From a virus, in the IMG/VR virus record IMGVR_UViG_3300043398_000057: DNA of 64,000 nt. The stretch is one strand, 5' to 3'. The position numbers were made by a program, and so were the translations under genes. The notes below the pieces were generated by a model, which did no database searches, was not told where the DNA came from, and saw nothing but the letters and a program-made list of their open reading frames with translations. Numbering within the stretch: the stretch's first letter is position 1; each line of letters opens with the position of its first letter. Shown piece by piece: positions 37,766 through 57,171 of the stretch.

Positions 37766-38380
37766 TTATTTGTAGTTTTTCAGCTACATTTCAAAAAGTT
37801 TCTTTCGATGATCAAGACCGTTCAGACCACCATTGATCTTCTTTGTCAACGCTTCAATGTTTGATGCCAGTGGCGTACAGTTTCGATCTTTCCAGAACCA
37901 GATTGCCGAATCGCAAGCACCCTCAATAGTCTTCAAGAATTCAATAGTTTCGTCAACGGTCTTACCGCGATACTTTGCGTAAGCCTGAACGTTGAACTTC
38001 CCGGTCTATTGAATGAAACCTCTACCAAGGTACTTTGAACCGTCACCAGAGGCTTCGTCACCATTACCCATACGATTTGCATACACACGGTTTGCAATCT
38101 CTCTAGGCTTTCTGGCGTACTGTTTGGCCTAGCTTGGGGTGAAATACTTCCCAAAGGTCTTCAACAGACCTTCTTCCGAATAGTTAAGATTCTCGCTCAT
38201 GTACATGAACCCACCGGACTCATGACCGACTTGCGCCTAAAAAGCACACATCACAGTTTTGTCATCAAGACCATTCAGAACAAGCAAAGGGTACATCGAT
38301 GCCGAAACATCAATCAACCTTTGCTTGGGGATATCTGTAAAAACCGTGATCAACAGTTCTTCAAAAAGTTTTTGGTTCAT
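37766..38380 (-). CDS. GH19 endolysin, 204 aa, with 4 in-frame TAG (missed by the ORF track)
   Basis: CAF*AQVGHESGGF..MSENLNYS...IANRVYANRMGNGDEASGDG.KYLGRGFIQ*TG...SAIWFW...TKKINGGLNGL.HR; TAG at 38237, 38129, 38006, 37784. Confidence 0.92.
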
Positions 38381-48054: not shown

Positions 48055-50526
48055 TTACCCTAGATCGGTCAAGTTGTCAGAATACTTCTTGTGGTTGTAG
48101 AAAGTCTTGACTTGTCTTCTGTTCGTACCACGGGTAAAGCTAATGTGAATCCATGGATTGTTTGCTGCAACCGAATACTCAAGCAAAAGTTGATCATAGA
48201 CCGGCAATTGTTCAGACAAAGCCTTAGCAATCTCGAAATAGTCTTTCTTCGACACACCACGGAACTGAATGTCAAACGCTTGACCGTTGATGTGCTGGCT
48301 TGTCTTTGATGATGCCGCAACCGTTCTGAAACCAGATGTTACAAACATCGATGGATATGAACGTTTAACATTCTCAAGAACATTGATGCAACCGGCCTGC
48401 AAGTTACAAATGATTTCTTCTTTGGTCAAACCATTTTGATCAACGACTTGATACTTCGACACAGCAGCCTTGGATGAAACATCAGCCAAAGTAAAGTTTG
48501 GCGACAGTCTCAAATCATCAGGGTAAGATGTAAGACCCGCGATAGCAGCACAGTCAGCCTTAATCGGTGCTTGGTTAGACGTTTGAACTTCGGCTGTGTC
48601 ACCGGCTTCCGGCATCTTGGCGGCTTCGTCAGGGTCGATATAACCTTTCTTGATTCCATCAGAAATCATACCCGAACTGTCACCATCTTCAGGAAGTTCA
48701 AACGTCACAACCGATGCGTCAAATCTTCTATTTGGTGTCGGGTCTGATGGGTTGTTTCCACCGTTACCGGGCGAAGGTTTGGGTTGACCTGAAGATTCTG
48801 CAACACCAGAATTCATATGAACTTGGGAACCATCAAGTGCAATGTTTCCGCCAGCCTTGATCGAAACACTATCAACAGCTTCAAGTTTGATTTCTTGGGC
48901 GACAACGTTCAAGTCTTGCGCAATTCTCAAATTTGCATCACCGGCAATCTCACCGGTCAGGTTTCCGCCAACTGTAAGGTTGCAATCACCACCAATCGTT
49001 ACATTGCATTGACCCTTGATGTAGATGTAACCATTTTTGTCAATGATTTCATAATCTGAGCCAACAATGCGAGTGGTTCGTGAACCAGTGTTGTCAATCT
49101 CAAAATATGAACCAGACCTATGGTAAACGTGAATACGTTCACCACCACTGGTATCATCAACTTCAATCACATGACCAGACTCTGACTCGAAAACTTTATT
49201 GAATGGATACTGCGCTGAATATGGACTAGGTTGTTCAGACCAAGTTTTACCAACAGTGTTGATACCAACAGTTCGGTTAGAGTCTTTTCTGGCAACAACA
49301 GTTTTAGAGATGTTTTCGCCACGGGCAAGACGGTTAGTGTCCTGTTCCTTGACATATCTCGGAAACTTAGAATTGGGGTCTTTGAAACCAATCTTGCCAG
49401 AATTGATGATTTCCTTGTTTGCCTTGATGACACTGAAAGTCTTGGGGTCTTCCATGTTCACAGGTTCGGCAACACTTGTTTGTGCGCCACCCATGAAGTA
49501 TTCATAAAATGTTCTCTTTCGCTGTGCAATATCGGGAGTATTGAACCCCACAGCAGATTTAGCAACATCAAAATATGTCGTAGAAGACTGCGAAATCTTA
49601 CAACGATCAAAGAAATATGCACACGCAACCTTTGCCGATGCAACAGGATCAGTGTTCAAGATTTCAGGATTTGAAACAATGTCAATACCGGAAAGTTTCG
49701 CATAACGTTCATAGTTTGCCCGACCGGTCAACTGAATGAAACCTCGACCGATGAATTTTGCTCCATCCCCGGGCATGGTGTTGCCCAAATTCTTCCCCTT
49801 TTTGGTTGTATGACCATAGAGAAATTCTGGCAAGTCTCGTTCATTGTTGGCATACTGGTTAGCCAATTGGTCATTATCACCGAAGACAGATGGGAAAACT
49901 TCTTTAAGCCTCTTTGCGGAGTATCGGAATGATTCTCTCTTCGGAATCCATGCACATTCACCACCAATGATACCAAGCAATGAAGAAATTGAGCGTCTTG
50001 TGTTAAACCCTTGACTTTTAGCAACATCGATAATCAGTTTGATATTCTGACTTGCGATTGCCGAATTCTGTGTGCCAGCCGGTGCAACAGTGGGAATCTT
50101 CGAAATGTCGTCAAGGTCATCAATCGGGCGAACCGGTTCAGTGGTTTGAGATTGAACCGGCGCGGGGTTCGCAGAATTTGGAAACTCCTGTTCAACCGGT
50201 GCAACACTGATTGATTCGTCACCACCAGATGCTAGAAATGCATCCATTTGTTGAGGAATGCCAACAAACGTGCCCACAACAAATGGCTTTTGCTGTGCTT
50301 CATCTGCAAACCAGATGAAAACCATCGAACCTTCAACAATACCTGTAGGTGAAATGCCAACACCAGAAACCGAAGCGTTGTTGACCCCTGAGATGATTGT
50401 TGCCCAAGGCAATGCATCCGTAGGAACTTCCTCAATTTTTTCGCTGTGCACGCCGAAAACACGCACGCGAACACGACCCTACTTCAGAGGATCGTTTCTA
50501 TCTTCAACAACGCCAACATTGAACAT
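48055..50526 (-). CDS. 5: Baseplate hub/tail lysin gp5-like, 823 aa (OB fold + GH19-like + beta-helix + peptidase M15), TAG at codon 16
   Basis: VGVVEDRNDPLK*GRVRVRVFGVH versus T4 gp5 VGVVEDRMDPLKLGRVRVRV; GRGFIQLTG; ESESGHVIEVDDT; SGFR...SQH..GQAFD...WIHIS. Confidence 0.93.
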
Positions 50527-50536
50527 CAAAACCCCT

Positions 50537-51769
50537 TTACTTGCCAAGTGACTCTTTAGAACACTCGACAATCATATCATGTTGATTACCGATGATCTTG
50601 TGACGAATAGCGGTCACAAGATACTTGCCGGAATACTTATCGTCAATGATGCGAGACTTGTTACCATCATCAATTGATGCATTTTTAGGCATCGTAACAT
50701 TTATAACGTTACCGACTTTCAAATCTGTTCGACCGAATACTTCAATCACAATTCGGTGTGCCATGATCGATTGCAACAGTGTATCGCGTTTCTGAATAGC
50801 ACTCTTCGCATCAACAAAGAATTCGCCCAAGTATTTGCTTGACTTGGTTACAAACGAAATCTTGGCGTTGGAACCAGCAACAACATTCTTGTCAAAAAGT
50901 GGCGAACTTTCCAGATGTGGATAAGTGTTGAACTCTTTGAAATAGTCATGAGTATTGGTTGTGATTCTCTTTGTGGTTGTGTCAAACTCATGCAACTTTG
51001 TTGAAAACATACCATTTGACAAACGCTTGAGAAAATCAAAGTCTTCAATGAACTGAATGTTTTTGATCACCGACAAACGTTCAGTAGTGTTCAGCGAAGT
51101 TCCCGAAGAGTAATTTTCCGCAGACACATCCGAGTCGATATAACTGTGCTTTGCGGGTTGCTTCAAAAGAGTTTCGACGCTAGAAAATTCATAAGACTTG
51201 TTCGACTCAAAAAACAAGTATGATGGTCTGCCAACAGAATTCTTAGAAAGTGATGCGATGTGGTTGATCAGCTTGAACGGTTCCCAATATGGTGAAATGA
51301 ATGTCACTGAGTTGTCTGACGGTTCAATGTAAATTTGCCTTTTCGATGCAAGACCGTATGACGCTGTGAAAATGTCCTTGATCACATCAGAAGTTTTACC
51401 CTTGAATGAGCGACTGATTTTTCTGTTCGCATCATTGATCATTTCGGGAGAACAAAAGTGCAAAACATAGTTCTGCTTTCTTGGCTTTGGCTTTGTTCGG
51501 TTAGAGATTCTGTAAACGAAAAAATCCCTTGAGATTGTTTCCCCGTTGATACCACGAATCGAAAAACTCAAAGTCTCGTTACCCATGATGGGCAGAACGG
51601 AAATGAGGTTTTTGGTGTCTTCAATCAAAATGGAACCCGTCATACAGTTTGCAAACATGTCTTCATAGACATTGATTTCAACAAAAGAATCAGTCAGGTC
51701 AAACCTACCACCGTTGACAGTGATAAGGTCAAGTTTCTCAATATCAACTTTTCCGGGAAAATTGTTCAT
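50537..51769 (-). CDS. Baseplate hub/tail protein (gp27/GpD-like)
   Basis: INVYEDMF..CMTGSILIED, LPIMGNE, YLFFE, YSGKYLVTAIRH; lies between gp53 and gp5. Confidence 0.75.
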   Translation of the reverse strand: MNNFPGKVDIEKLDLITVNGGRFDLTDSFVEINVYEDMFANCMTGSILIEDTKNLISVLPIMGNETLSFSIRGINGETISRDFFVYRISNRTKPKPRKQNYVLHFCSPEMINDANRKISRSFKGKTSDVIKDIFTASYGLASKRQIYIEPSDNSVTFISPYWEPFKLINHIASLSKNSVGRPSYLFFESNKSYEFSSVETLLKQPAKHSYIDSDVSAENYSSGTSLNTTERLSVIKNIQFIEDFDFLKRLSNGMFSTKLHEFDTTTKRITTNTHDYFKEFNTYPHLESSPLFDKNVVAGSNAKISFVTKSSKYLGEFFVDAKSAIQKRDTLLQSIMAHRIVIEVFGRTDLKVGNVINVTMPKNASIDDGNKSRIIDDKYSGKYLVTAIRHKIIGNQHDMIVECSKESLGK

Positions 51770-52248
51770 ACTGCGCTCAAGGCTTTCTCAACTTCAGCAA
51801 TAAACGATGGAAGAACCGTTTCCGCCAAGATTCGGATTCTTTTCTTTTCGTCATTGACCTTCGTTTCATATTCAATGTTTGTGATAGGTACAACAAACTC
51901 TGAAGTATTGTCCTGAACTTCGCGTCCATCAAGTTCGTAATGATGAACACCGTTAATGTCATCATACTTTGATGCGACATATTCAAGCAAAACATCTGAA
52001 CTCATGGGCCAATCAAAGTATGGATCACGAATGTCATTCACAACCAAAATAACCCAATTCAGGTTCGGGTCTTTATAAAACTTGAATGCAACATCATGAG
52101 GGGTTTCACCGTCAGCGATTTCATAAATCTGATACAGAGACTTCTTCGCCTTGATTTGCTTTGACAGTTCTACTTGGGCAATAACATCACGGATGACGAT
52201 TGCCTTACCATCAAACTCATATTGAATGAATGGAAGATACTCAAGCAT
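51766..52248 (-). CDS. 53: Baseplate wedge subunit gp53
   Basis: GETPHDVAFKFY...WVILVVNDI.DPYFDWP, HHYE, YE...NDEKKRI. Confidence 0.9.
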   Translation of the reverse strand: MLEYLPFIQYEFDGKAIVIRDVIAQVELSKQIKAKKSLYQIYEIADGETPHDVAFKFYKDPNLNWVILVVNDIRDPYFDWPMSSDVLLEYVASKYDDINGVHHYELDGREVQDNTSEFVVPITNIEYETKVNDEKKRIRILAETVLPSFIAEVEKALSAV

Positions 52249-52249
52249 T

Positions 52250-53110
52250 TTAATACCCCGATCCTGTTGTGCTACCATCAATCATTGAACGGTCAATAGT
52301 TTCAACTTCAGTGAAAGTAAGGTTCATGGTGCAATCATTGAAATTTCCGTCACTGTGCATGTACATTGCATTGTTTGGTGAATAGTCAACCGAAACTTCA
52401 GTCAGTGCGCAAGGCAAAATCTTTGGAATCGATGTGATTTCATTTTTGCCCGTGAAGAACTGAATCTGAAAGAATGCAGGGAACAACCAAAATGCGTTAC
52501 CGGGCGAAATGGAAGGCGCGGCATAGAAACGGAACGTCTTGATGATTTCTTGAACGTCACGATGTTCCTTGGCATTCTTGGGGTTGAACGTCCAGTTGAA
52601 CGTGAATGTTCTGAAGTTGATACCACGGAAGAACTGTTCTTTGAAATCTCGTTCAGTCTGACGAATCGCACCCTTGATAAAGCCACTAGCCTTTGCGCTG
52701 TTGATCGCTTTGCGCTTGATGTAGTCTTGGGTCACACCTTCAACGCCACCTTCTCTAAAGGCTTCCAAAGCCTTTGCAATGCCGGTCTGTGATTCCTGAG
52801 TCCATTCCATGTTCTGATTGAACTGAATGTTAGGCGGAATGGGCAAAAAGATGGAACGGTCAATCTGTTCAACCCCTTGACGGGTTTTGAAACTGAATTC
52901 GAATTTTGACTTCGCATCAGGCGCGGTAACATCGGGATCAATAGATTTGTCCTTGACCTATGAACCATCGCTTGCAACAGTGGTCAATCGCTTGGATTCT
53001 CCCAAGAAAGAATTTGACTTTGTATCGAGAATCAAAATTCTCGTGTATGGAACACCTTCAGTATTTGACAGGCTGTTCTATTCATTTGGGTAAGCTAGGA
53101 TTTTGCTCAT
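52250..53110 (-). CDS. 48: Baseplate tail-tube cap gp48-like, 286 aa, TAG at codons 11 and 51
   Basis: ILAYPNE*N..., IFLPIP, FRGINFRTFTFNWTFNPKN..E, L.F.EVE. Confidence 0.85.
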
Positions 53111-54006: not shown

Positions 54007-54945
54007 TTATTCTTCGGGGTAGTCGTGATTACGCAACAGTTGGCGAAGTTGAACCCAACGCCGGAAGTTACCGCTACACGGAATCGAGAACAGACCCTTA
54101 GAATCTCGCTTGATGTGGGTCACACCAGCATCAGTGAAATCCTGAATCGGGGTGCCCTGGTGTTCAGCGGGTGAGCTATGCGAACGTTCTTCAGTGCGCA
54201 CCGGTTGATCAAGGTGCAGCTTCTGAGCAATGTCATCAGCCTTTTCAACAGAAGTGTCGTGCTTTCGATAAGAAGTCTGTGCGCAACATGACATGGAAAT
54301 CTTCTTCGCGGTTTCCAAATCGATAACGTCACCACGTTCATCAAAGAAAACTTGCTTACCTGCAACGAATTGTTGATTCACATATGGAAGGTGCCATTGA
54401 CCGGGCTCAAGCAGAACCGGTTCAGAATTGTTCAAAGCGGTTTCCATGAGGTGCGCCAGATAGTTAAATTCCGGTTGCGCGGCATCATGATTGCGAAGCC
54501 AGAAAAAGTTCTTCCAATCGGTTGCGGTCAGAACCATCTTTTGCATCATGATGGGTTCCAAGAATCGCCCGGCAAGTTGCTTGTGGAACTTCTTCTGATC
54601 AAGAATGGTGGCAGCGTCGATACAGTTGCCAACAAGCACACGCCAAATAGCTTTCACTTCTTCAAGTTCTTCACCTTCAAACTGATCATCGGCACTCATG
54701 CCGGGCTTGTTGATACCCCAAAAGTTAGGTTCAAAGTAATTGCCATTTCGAATGTTTTCAATTTGCTTGGCAAGCGGAATTGCGCGAGAACTCGAACCAT
54801 TCTTAGAAACCATCTTGTGCGTGTTCTATTCGGCCAAAATCGGGCGAGGGAACTCGACTTCGTATGTAACCAGCGGAACGCCAATACGCGAAATCGAATG
54901 AGCAATGATGTTTACAGAAGTCTTGTTAGGATGAAAGTTACGCAA
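54007..54945 (-). CDS. thyX: Flavin-dependent thymidylate synthase, TAG at codon 40
   Basis: TTG start with GGAG RBS; FPRPILAE*NTHKMVSKNGSSSRAIP; HKQLAGRFLEP, FFWLRNH..AQPE, HSSPAEHQ. Confidence 0.9.
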
Positions 54946-55187: not shown

Positions 55188-55264
55188 TGGTCTTCCCGGT
55201 AGGATTCGAACCTACGACCCTCTGCTCCCAAAGCAGATGCGCTACCAGACTGCGCTACGGAAAG
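55188..55264 (-). tRNA. tRNA-Pro(UGG)
   Basis: Cloverleaf, anticodon loop TT TGG GA, encoded CCA. Confidence 0.93.
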
Positions 55265-55282
55265 ACAAAACTTAAAACTTGT

Positions 55283-55367
55283 TGGTACCCCCGGTCGGAA
55301 TCGAACCGACACGCCTTTCGGCGGCGCTTTTAGAGAACGCTGTGTCTACCAATTTCACCACAGGGGC
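55283..55367 (-). tRNA. Amber-decoding tRNA(CUA) on a tRNA-Leu scaffold
   Basis: GCCCCTG TGGTGAAATTGGTAGACAC A GCGTT CT CTA AA AGCGC, long variable arm, GTCGGTTCGATTCCGAC, CGGGGGT A CCA; anticodon at 55331-55333. Confidence 0.93.
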
Positions 55368-55394
55368 ACACGAACTCTATTGTACCAGAAATTT

Positions 55395-55468
55395 TGGTGC
55401 CCATGCACGGTATCGAACCGCATTCTATGGCTTACAAAACCATTGCATCACCTTAATGCTTCACGGGC
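55395..55468 (-). tRNA. tRNA-Thr(UGU)
   Basis: ATGGT TT TGT AA GCCAT anticodon arm, CCA. Confidence 0.85.
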
Positions 55469-55500
55469 GTCCTAAACTTTTCACATTATACCACATAACT

Positions 55501-55591
55501 TGGCGGGGTGTGTGAGATTCGAACTCACGGAACGCTATTAACGTTCGCCGGTTTTCAAGACCGGTGCATTAAACCACTCTGCCAACACCCC
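55501..55591 (-). tRNA. tRNA-Ser(UGA)
   Basis: CCGGT CT TGA AA ACCGG, long variable arm, G73, CCA. Confidence 0.93.
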
Positions 55592-55770
55592 ATCAAATTG
55601 AATTTGCGGAACTTCCCAAAAACTTCGACGCCTTTCGGCTCCATCTAAGGGAACGTTTTAACTCGTGTTCCATCGAGATTAGCTACATTTTTGTTACCGG
55701 AGTCTAACCCGATTTCTTCGTACAGACTGCAACCATGTCTGTACTATCTAGGGACCACCTAGAACGTCAC

Positions 55771-55845
55771 TGGCTCCGAAGGTAGGGATCGAACCTACGA
55801 CCAATTGATTAACAGTCAACTGCACTACCGCTGTGCTACTTCGGA
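55771..55845 (-). tRNA. tRNA-Asn(GUU)
   Basis: GTTGA CT GTT AA TCAAT, CCA. Confidence 0.93.
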
Positions 55846-55853
55846 ATTGTTTT

Positions 55854-56366
55854 TCACTTTTTTAAGAAGTAACCTCTTTTCGGAACCTCAATATCAAAAT
55901 GTTGACACCACTTTTTCACGGTTACGTCTGACACGTTGTAAATGCTTGCTATTTTTGTCATTGGCATTTTCCAAACTATATCAGAAAGTTCTTCTTTTGT
56001 TATTTGAAACTTTACTCTATCATCACTCGCACATTTTGGTGAACAATACTTTTGTTCACTTTTGTTAGTTACCTCGAAAGAAACTTTGCACTTTGTACAT
56101 GCACGATATTCTTTGATTACGTTCTTATCTTCTCTATGGTGTAACGCTGCATGTTCCGAGTTTGTCATTAACATCAAATTGCTAATATGATTGTTTTTCC
56201 TATTTCTATCAATATGATGTACACACTCGTCTGGTAGCAACAGTCTACCAATATGCTAACACATTACATAAACATGTTCCATGACTTTACCTGCACCGTT
56301 AGCATAAATGCTTTCCGGATTATAGCAATACATGTAACCTGTTCCAACATCTTCTCTAAAAATCAT
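55854..56366 (-). CDS. HNH homing endonuclease in the tRNA cluster, TAG at codon 37
   Basis: GYMYCY...EHVYVMC*HIGR...ECVHHIDRNRKNNHISNL...EHAALH; C-terminal Zn finger and HTH. Confidence 0.85.
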
Positions 56367-56369
56367 TTT

Positions 56370-56457
56370 TGGACTCCCGTGGAGGTATCGAACCTCTCGA
56401 CTTCCATCCTGCGGTTTAATGTCGTCGGCTTAGAAGACCGATGCGGGGACACGGGAG
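56370..56457 (-). ncRNA. Atypical tRNA-like RNA (UCU anticodon arm, no D arm, 8/4 acceptor/T stems)
   Basis: CTCCCGTG/CACGGGAG-T-CCA; TCGGT CTTCTAA GCCGA; GAGG TTCGATA CCTC. Confidence 0.7.
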
Positions 56458-56478
56458 GTCTAAAAACTTAAAACTTGT

Positions 56479-56563
56479 TGGTGCCCCGGGTCGGACTCGA
56501 ACCGACACTCCTTTCGGAACCGGATTTTGAATCCGGTGCGTCTACCAATTTCACCACCGGGGC
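56479..56563 (-). tRNA. tRNA-Leu(CAA)
   Basis: CCGGA TT CAA AA TCCGG, long variable arm, A73, CCA. Confidence 0.94.
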
Positions 56564-57171
56564 AACGTTTACATGATACATCTGTTTGTTGGCGTCCAAC
56601 ACACTCAGATTATACCATGTTTCGCCGGAATTTCACCGGCTCGTCAGAACGTTTATTCCTTAGACTCCTTAACGACCAGAATCATGTTTTGCAGAACCTT
56701 TGCGCCAACTAGAACACCACTACCAAAGTCGAAAACTTCGCCAGAACCCGAAGTTGCAACTTCGTATGCCTTGATGATCCTGCCGGTAACTTCAGCAGTT
56801 GCTGAATCCCAGGTCAAGATACTTTGACCATTGTACGAACTCACCAAGGTGATGTTGAACAGCTTTTCTTGTGCACTGGTTTCTTGAACTTGTTCGGTCA
56901 TTTTTTTGTCCTTATCTAAAAATGTTGTCAGAATGTAATTATACCACAGTTATTCACTATCCCATGCCGAAAGCATGTCAAAATCTTCATCATCAAGCGA
57001 TTCATCAAGAATTTGATCGGGGCGCTTCTTGTGCTTGGTTGCTTCCTTTTCGTCTTGTTGACGAATGATGAACGAGGGCTTGGGCGACTTGTCGGCCTTG
57101 GTATCGAACTTGTTTTGCATTTCTTTCTCGGTTGATAGTTACTGGTTACGAAATTCAATGTTTGTAGTGTA

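Follow-up and report, generated by a model that had tools for sequence, protein, structure and literature searches.

A leucine-type tRNA with the anticodon CUA likely reads rare in-frame TAG codons as leucine in a T4-like phage

Introduction

The IMG/VR virus record IMGVR_UViG_3300043398_000057 contains a tRNA gene with the anticodon CUA, which lies 1.2 kb from a tRNA-Leu(CAA) gene in the same tRNA cluster. This locus raises the question of which amino acid is inserted at TAG in this virus, and of whether the CUA tRNA derives from its neighbour. An initial annotation had proposed that the amber tRNA arose by duplication of the tRNA-Leu(CAA) gene with a one-base change in the anticodon. Here, we analyzed a stretch of 64,000 nt (hereafter termed the window), which belongs to a contig of 144,862 bp from an environmental T4-like phage. 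The window has a G+C content of 43%, carries nearly all of its genes on the minus strand and encodes, among others, the baseplate genes gp5, gp48 and gp53, a DNA polymerase, a ligase, SbcCD-like genes, ThyX and a GH19 endolysin.

In phages that use genetic code 15, which include crAss-like phages, Lak phages, phAss-1 and others, TAG is read as glutamine by Gln-type tRNAs (bioRxiv 10.1101/2021.08.26.457843, PMC10607447, PMC9523058). Only the reassignments of TAG to Gln and of TGA to Trp were observed in a survey of phages (preprint 10.1101/2021.08.26.457843), and published surveys of recoded phages attribute this restriction to the tolerance of the glutaminyl- and tryptophanyl-tRNA synthetases (GlnRS and TrpRS). 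We found no report of a phage that reads TAG as leucine in the searchable literature. The analysis presented below makes it likely that a working leucine tRNA reads TAG in the T4-like phage studied here, and that this tRNA is a member of the tRNA-Leu family whose history includes at least one step of local copying in common with the resident tRNA-Leu(CAA), the copy being either old or mosaic.

Results

TAG is a rare sense codon in the window

On the coding strand, the trinucleotide TAG occurs 246 times, compared to 546 occurrences of TAA and 2132 of TGA. Across 45 long genes with 12,898 codons in total, TAG was found 20 times in frame, TTG 249 times and TTA 17 times. PHROG matches span in-frame TAG codons in the DNA polymerase, two HNH/homing endonucleases, the endolysin (four TAGs), gp48, ThyX, a dCMP deaminase, a ClpP-like protease and a DNA-transfer protein, and a further in-frame TAG in gp5 is spanned by homology. 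The TAG-bearing genes thus comprise replication, nucleotide-metabolism and virion genes alike. Of the standard-code open reading frames (ORFs) in the window with a length of 50 codons or more, 15 have TAG as their last codon, and each of these is either a gene fragment or fully contained in a longer ORF of another frame. No real gene terminating in TAG was seen in the window, the real stops being TGA or TAA, and no tRNA besides the CUA gene that could read TAG was found there.

Additional information on the use of TAG came from a close relative, a contig of 3978 bp from the Logan assembly of SRR30451274 (SRR30451274_383571; L001), which is colinear with positions 48998-52973 of the window at 80.7% nucleotide identity. 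The two sequences share one TAG site, which is the gp5 codon, while one site is found only in the window and two are found only in the relative, where they stand opposite TTC and CAG of the window. This partial difference indicates that TAG turns over fast in this clade, as an ordinary rare sense codon would.

Aligned homologues favour leucine at TAG

To assign an amino acid to TAG, deep sets of homologues were aligned and the residues in the column opposite each TAG were counted (Table 1). The aligned columns favour leucine at the rare in-frame sites: summed over six TAG columns, the log10 likelihood is -2.56 for Leu and -6.23 for Ile as the next best residue, a difference of ~3.7 log10 units. 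The conserved columns contain few or no Gln, Tyr and Lys residues, with a Gln count of 0 in gp5, in ThyX and at endolysin residues 50 and 127. The columns of the dCMP deaminase (G/V/T) and of the DNA polymerase (unaligned) were uninformative either way, and a PDB sequence search with ThyX gave no match.

The initial annotation had also suggested that TAG in the ORFs mirrors TTG, and orthologous codons bear this out. The codon corresponding to the TAG of ThyX is TTG in 70%-identical relatives (L023-L025), and that corresponding to the TAG of gp5 is TTG in two relatives (L028 and L030), CTT in a third (L031) and TAG in L001. The window does not follow code 15, since the conserved columns lack Gln and the tRNA is of the class II Leu type, as described in the following.

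The CUA tRNA is a class II tRNA of the leucine type

By its sequence, the CUA tRNA is clearly a leucine-type class II tRNA. It matches the Rfam tRNA model RF00005 (threshold 29 bits) over its full length with zero non-canonical pairs flagged, and none were flagged in the tRNA-Leu(CAA) either. As initially annotated and as found with ARAGORN and Rfam, both genes are 85 nt long, carry A73 and share the D-arm, the CCGAAAGG variable hairpin and the T-arm. Both encode CCA, and their three-pair variable stem is closed by GAAA. On the D-loop side, positions 8-23 of the CUA tRNA are the same as in the resident tRNA-Leu(CAA). The CUA tRNA has the wobble pairs G1.U72 and U6.G67 and the anticodon loop CUCUAAA, in which A36-A37-A38 are retained, and all invariant tRNA positions are intact. 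In the phage database, every annotated feature under the 40 best matches of the CUA gene is a tRNA-Leu, and in a tree of 23 class II tRNAs the gene nests among tRNA-Leu genes, apart from the tRNA-Ser of the window. Clustering with a non-Leu isotype, which would have contradicted the initial annotation, was not observed.

The two genes are identical at 69 of 85 positions (81.2%), which leaves 16 differences, 15 of them besides the anticodon change. The two copies are thus not nearly identical outside the anticodon, and the proposed one-base change does not describe them: both bases have changed in each of five stem pairs, namely 6-67, 27-43, 30-40, 31-39 and the pair at the base of the variable stem. 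Two further pairs differ on one side (U11-A24 versus U11.G24, and G1.U72 versus G1-C72), and the four unpaired differences lie at positions 32, 35 and 44 and at one T-loop position. All 12 differences in stems leave a Watson-Crick or G.U pair. The anticodon stems, which had been described as different and yet paired, are indeed fully paired in both genes, with GCGUU/AGCGC (one G.U pair) in the CUA gene and CCGGA/UCCGG in the tRNA-Leu(CAA) gene. Such compensated changes are what two functional genes would show, and they disfavour a sequencing error, which the initial annotation had already argued against, as well as a pseudogene. Since pairing is conserved throughout the 16 differences, most of which affect the anticodon arm and the variable-arm base, the anticodon change was one step among many.

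A shared trailer links the CUA gene to the tRNA-Leu(CAA) gene

Directly after the CCA, both genes continue with the same 16-nt trailer, ACAAGTTTTAAGTTTT, as had been noted initially. It has exact matches in the window at these two sites only. The trailer is the one feature that specifically links the CUA gene to the tRNA-Leu(CAA) gene, and its identity implies at least one local copying event common to both. No trailer sharing was found in the other pairs of phage tRNA-Leu paralogues examined (Vibrio phage EniLVp02, Pseudomonas phage Bitten and Aeromonas phage TSW001), and the 5' flanks of the CUA and tRNA-Leu(CAA) genes have no similarity.

The remainder of the tRNA is uninformative on specific parentage. 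The shared D-arm, CCGAAAGG and T-arm are also found in bacterial-type tRNA-Leu(CAA) genes located at the ends of prophages (L002-L009), as well as in numerous tRNA-Leu genes of phages, whose anticodons are CAA, UAA or UAG; we therefore rejected these motifs as proof of a specific duplication, as they recur in many unrelated genes. Several observations weigh against a direct descent of the CUA gene from its neighbour. Its identity to the neighbour is no higher than that to unrelated genes, namely 82.4% to the tRNA-Leu(CAA) of L007 and likewise 81.2% to the tRNA-Leu(UAA) of KZY1, and several foreign genes resemble the resident tRNA-Leu(CAA) more closely (84.7%) than the CUA gene does. The maximum likelihood tree weakly places the CUA gene with the tRNA-Leu(UAA) genes of KZY1 and of the T4-like phage EniLVp02 and with the tRNA-Leu(CAA) of L006 (bootstraps 30-52) and not with its neighbour. 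In addition, the unchanged trailer beside a changed body does not fit passive divergence after one duplication: the trailer has 0 changes in 16 nt compared to 16 changes in the 85 nt of the body, which has a P of ~0.036 even at the rate of the body. This leaves functional constraint or recent homogenization by conversion to account for the trailer. Constraint is plausible because the trailer is an AU-rich spacer ahead of the next tRNA-like gene, consistent with a processing site. The proposed duplication is thus retained only in part: the unique trailer argues for it, while the generic motifs and the level of identity do not, and the phylogeny confirms the Leu family and leaves the two genes unpaired, with bootstraps below 60.

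These observations bring up a different parent, or a mosaic gene, as an alternative. The CUA gene would then descend from another tRNA-Leu, either of the Leu(UAA) type or a horizontally acquired tRNA-Leu(CAA), and gene conversion with the resident tRNA-Leu(CAA) would later have homogenized only the 3' end with its trailer, and possibly the 5' part. We consider this unlikely on balance, although it is the strongest of the alternatives. The anticodon and variable arms of the CUA gene match those of the L006 tRNA-Leu(CAA) and of the KZY1 and EniLVp02 tRNA-Leu(UAA) genes far better than those of the neighbour, with an AGCG...CGC anticodon stem common to all four, and its acceptor 5' strand GCCCCUG is the same as that of the EniLVp02 tRNA-Leu(UAA). 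Moreover, the differences between the two resident genes are clustered, with 10 in the 27 positions from 27 to 53 (anticodon arm and variable-arm base) and 6 in the 74 positions elsewhere including the trailer (Fisher p = 0.001); some clustering is expected, however, as anticodon stems are the fastest-changing part of tRNA families. A tRNA-Leu(UAA) parent would be of a type common in T4-like phages and redundant here, with TTA nearly unused, but two anticodon changes would be needed to obtain CUA from it. An HNH endonuclease gene between the two tRNA genes and a possible Leu-like relic sharing an exact 12-mer with the CUA gene also speak for this alternative. No donor gene lies within the window, though, and forcing the CUA and tRNA-Leu(CAA) genes to be sisters costs 9.5 log-likelihood units, a pairing that the approximately unbiased (AU) test does not reject (p = 0.28).

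Two further explanations leave the origin aside and concern the function of the CUA tRNA. The tRNA might be charged partly or wholly with another amino acid, such as Gln, for which the weak G1.U72 pair and U35 could speak, or Tyr or Lys, so that TAG would not be cleanly leucine. G1.U72 weakens the end of the acceptor stem, and in work on supF mischarging a weakened acceptor end favoured charging by GlnRS. Two single comparisons point in the same direction, as one TAG of L001 stands opposite CAG (Gln) in the window and one structural homologue, PDB 9f4a, has Q at the gp5 site. We nevertheless consider such charging very improbable, because the residues in question are missing or nearly so from the conserved TAG columns and because A73 and the pairs C2-G71 and C3-G70, set in a class II Leu-type body, are not GlnRS-like. 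Even less probable, to a degree that we regard as negligible, is that the CUA gene is decaying or unexpressed and that TAG is read through by other means. It scores lower than the tRNA-Leu(CAA) in Rfam (48.4 versus 57.1 bits), but its stem changes are all compensated, its invariant positions are intact, and ~20 in-frame TAGs in essential genes would be left with no other tRNA in the window to read them. A functional leucine tRNA with a local copying history thus remains the interpretation that we prefer.

Organization of the tRNA cluster

Six tRNA genes were called by ARAGORN on the minus strand between positions 55188 and 56563, all of which are also matched by Rfam. Their order along transcription is Leu(CAA), Asn, Ser(UGA), Thr(UGU), the CUA-anticodon tRNA and Pro(UGG) (Table 1). 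The CUA gene is probably transcribed from its own sigma-70-type promoter, as suggested by the extended -10-like motif TGGTACAAT located 11 nt upstream, which had been noticed before and which we found again. The related motif TGGTATAAT precedes the tRNA-Leu(CAA) and tRNA-Thr genes, and TGGTAYAAT occurs at 8 sites in the window, all on the coding (minus) strand, compared to 0.81 expected.

The HNH endonuclease gene at 55854-56366, which sits between the two Leu-type tRNA genes, could drive gene conversion in the cluster. The homing endonuclease SegB is similarly placed in the tRNA region of T4.

Two other elements of the cluster were observed. The spacer between the tRNA-Ser and tRNA-Asn genes (55598-55690, minus strand) contains, at 55628-55639, an exact copy of the 12-mer GCCGAAAGGCGT, which is otherwise present in the window only in the CUA gene. 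Ahead of this copy lies a CGTTC...CTTAGA segment similar to the anticodon arm of the CUA gene on its 5' side. The spacer has no significant fold and no Rfam match, and it may be a decayed third copy of a Leu-like tRNA. Directly 3' of the tRNA-Leu(CAA) trailer lies a tRNA-like element (56373-56458, minus strand), for which ARAGORN made no call. Its acceptor-like stem comprises 9 bp and its T-stem, which carries a GGUUCGAUACC loop, 4 bp; the extra arm is long, the D-arm is almost missing and the anticodon-like loop reads CUUCUAA (UCU). Its match to the Rfam tRNA-Sec model (23.3 bits) is below the threshold of 47, and its fold has a z-score of -2.6. The element recalls the 9/3 and 8/4 'allo-tRNAs' (PMC5389517).

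Table 1. Features of the tRNA cluster and in-frame TAG codons with the residues found opposite them. Positions refer to the window.
Feature	Position	Strand	Evidence or remark
tRNA with anticodon CUA	55283-55367	minus	ARAGORN; Rfam tRNA 48.4 bits
tRNA-Leu(CAA), 85 nt, A73, encoded CCA	56479-56563	minus	ARAGORN; Rfam 57.1 bits
3' trailer ACAAGTTTTAAGTTTT, copy 1, spacer to tRNA-Pro	55267-55282	minus	identical to copy 2
3' trailer ACAAGTTTTAAGTTTT, copy 2, spacer to tRNA-like element	56463-56478	minus	identical to copy 1
TGGTACAAT, extended -10-like motif upstream of CUA tRNA	55379-55387	minus	motif count
TGGTATAAT, upstream of tRNA-Leu(CAA)	56609-56617	minus	motif count
TGGTATAAT, upstream of tRNA-Thr	55485-55493	minus	motif count
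tRNA-Pro(UGG), gene next after CUA tRNA	55188-55264	minus	ARAGORN, Rfam
tRNA-Thr(UGU)	55395-55468	minus	ARAGORN, Rfam
tRNA-Ser(UGA)	55501-55591	minus	ARAGORN, Rfam
tRNA-Asn(GUU)	55771-55845	minus	ARAGORN, Rfam
HNH endonuclease gene, one in-frame TAG, within tRNA cluster	55854-56366	minus	PHROG HNH match spanning TAG
gp5 TAG (DPLK-TAG-GRVRV)	50479-50481	minus	L 109, M 8, I 7, V 5 of 137; Leu in T4 gp5
Endolysin residue 50 TAG	38237-38239	minus	L 85, I 20, V 13, M 2 of 120
Endolysin residue 86 TAG	38129-38131	minus	L 29, T 27, N 13, Q 11 and others (120 homologues)
Endolysin residue 127 TAG	38006-38008	minus	L 83, I 30, V 6 (120 homologues)
Endolysin residue 201 TAG	37784-37786	minus	A 65, I 17, L 15, F 12 (120 homologues)
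ThyX TAG (ILAE-TAG-NTHK)	54826-54828	minus	L 55, F 27, V 24 of 119
gp48-like baseplate protein TAG	52958-52960	minus	CTT (Leu) at orthologous codon of L001

Relatives and other CUA tRNAs in sequence databases

A protein-based scan of IMG/VR revealed no close relatives bearing the cluster, DNA patterns specific to the CUA gene had no match in IMG/VR and the JGI metagenomes, and look-ups of 90% clusters returned singletons. The L001 contig (4 kb), which was the only close relative obtained, is without the tRNA cluster. The more distant relatives (L023-L031 and L040) have intact standard-code genes and no tRNAs in the parts examined, and blastn found nothing in E. coli genomes within the E-value limit.

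We additionally searched for a Leu-type D-arm joined to a UCUAAA loop. This pattern was found at 13 loci in JGI/ENA metagenomes, of which three (L011, L013 and L017) carry a Leu-type CUA tRNA, located near a tRNA-Leu(CAA) gene in L011 and L017. The pattern was absent from IMG/VR, and 185,579 species genomes yielded one uncalled match. The three metagenomic loci were considered as a second phage lineage and rejected, as they are of the green-algal mitochondrial type, in which TAG is a frequent sense codon (known code 16/22). L017 encodes nad1 together with genes of the nad5 and nad2/nad4 types, and its two largest genes contain 33-37 in-frame TAGs each. Loci of this kind are easily confused with AT-rich phage tRNA clusters.

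Several of the remaining loci have features of their own. L019 (OUNJ010000014.1, 21.7 kb, 60% G+C) contains a well-formed Leu-type tRNA(CUA) with A73-CCA at 189-275. The locus looks bacterial, with genes for a Na+/H+ exchanger and a phosphoribosyl pyrophosphate synthetase, and TAG is apparently the real stop of the exchanger gene; a genome with the standard code would here possess a natural amber suppressor of the Leu type. Similar GC-rich CUA tRNAs are present in L020 and L022. In L010, L014, L015 and L021, a Leu-type 5' half (acceptor strand, D-arm and CUCUAAA stem-loop) is followed by ~100 nt of unrelated sequence, and ARAGORN made no call; these may be interrupted or intron-bearing CUA tRNA genes, or remnants of attachment sites. 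Finally, L012 (2275-2350) and L016 (8-83), both of 24-27% G+C, carry a 76-nt tRNA(CUA) with a Leu-like D-arm and a short variable region, and the neighbouring ORFs contain a few in-frame TAGs.

Discussion

The above results point to a simple mode of decoding. The parts used by the leucyl-tRNA synthetase (LeuRS), i.e. A73, the layout of the D-loop and the long variable arm, are kept in the CUA tRNA, and because LeuRS ignores the anticodon, the host enzyme would be expected to load this tRNA with leucine. The rare in-frame TAG codons would then be decoded as Leu. As the genes end in TGA or TAA only, the CUA tRNA would be a dedicated decoder of a rare leucine codon and not a leaky suppressor. The local copying that underlies the shared trailer would have been a duplication or a gene conversion, with a direction and an order of events that are presumptive.

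The mechanism is known in kind. In E. coli, supP (Su6) is leuX with a change of CAA to CUA, which inserts leucine efficiently, LeuRS being independent of the anticodon (PMC7969014). The phage tRNA has the same isoacceptor type and the same anticodon outcome. Unlike supP, which is a laboratory point mutant of a host gene and competes with release factor RF1 at real stops, the phage has a separate gene with 15 further differences and no TAG terminators. A natural counterpart exists in the mitochondria of the Scenedesmaceae (Sphaeropleales; codes 16 and 22), in which UAG encodes leucine following a duplication of tRNA-Leu(CAA) and was rare before its capture (Noutahi et al. 2019, PMC6551751). There, too, a class II Leu-type tRNA(CUA) is found near tRNA-Leu(CAA). 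In addition to the difference between an organelle and a phage, the duplication signature is far cleaner in the mitochondria: the CUA and CAA genes of the mitochondrial loci L011 and L017 have identical anticodon stems and pair with 98% bootstrap, whereas the two phage genes diverge most in their anticodon arms and are not paired in the tree. With the code 15 phages, the window shares a phage-encoded CUA tRNA, in-frame TAG and a host that presumably uses the standard code. It differs from the code 15 gut phages, in which TAG occurs mostly in late and lysis genes, in being T4-like, in the Leu-type tRNA and in having TAGs across gene classes. What is new is the use of this mechanism by a phage and with leucine.

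A broader scenario, which we put forward tentatively since it is as yet somewhat short of being probable, is that a clade of T4-like environmental phages independently reassigned TAG to Leu via a spare tRNA-Leu gene, by the route known from green-algal mitochondria, that the anticodon arm (loop CUCUAAA) and the weakened acceptor pairs were adaptively tuned for dedicated decoding of TAG, and that this is the first phage amber code to be described that is not based on glutamine. The initial annotation had likewise suggested that the anticodon stem was remodelled for suppression. This is one reading of the changes. The same type of arm is found in other phage tRNA-Leu genes, and a mosaic gene or a different parent is the second reading.

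If TAG is indeed read as leucine, annotation of such phages with code 11 or code 15 results in split or wrong proteins, and the CUA tRNA with its trailer would be a ready natural part for suppression systems. The question of its origin, as a simple duplicate or a mosaic, is of lesser weight. Because LeuRS ignores the anticodon, a single mutation would suffice for any spare tRNA-Leu gene to capture TAG. Besides TAG-to-Gln and TGA-to-Trp, phages would thus have a second and mechanistically simpler door to recoding, on which the T4-like phage described here would have converged with the mitochondria of chlorophycean algae.

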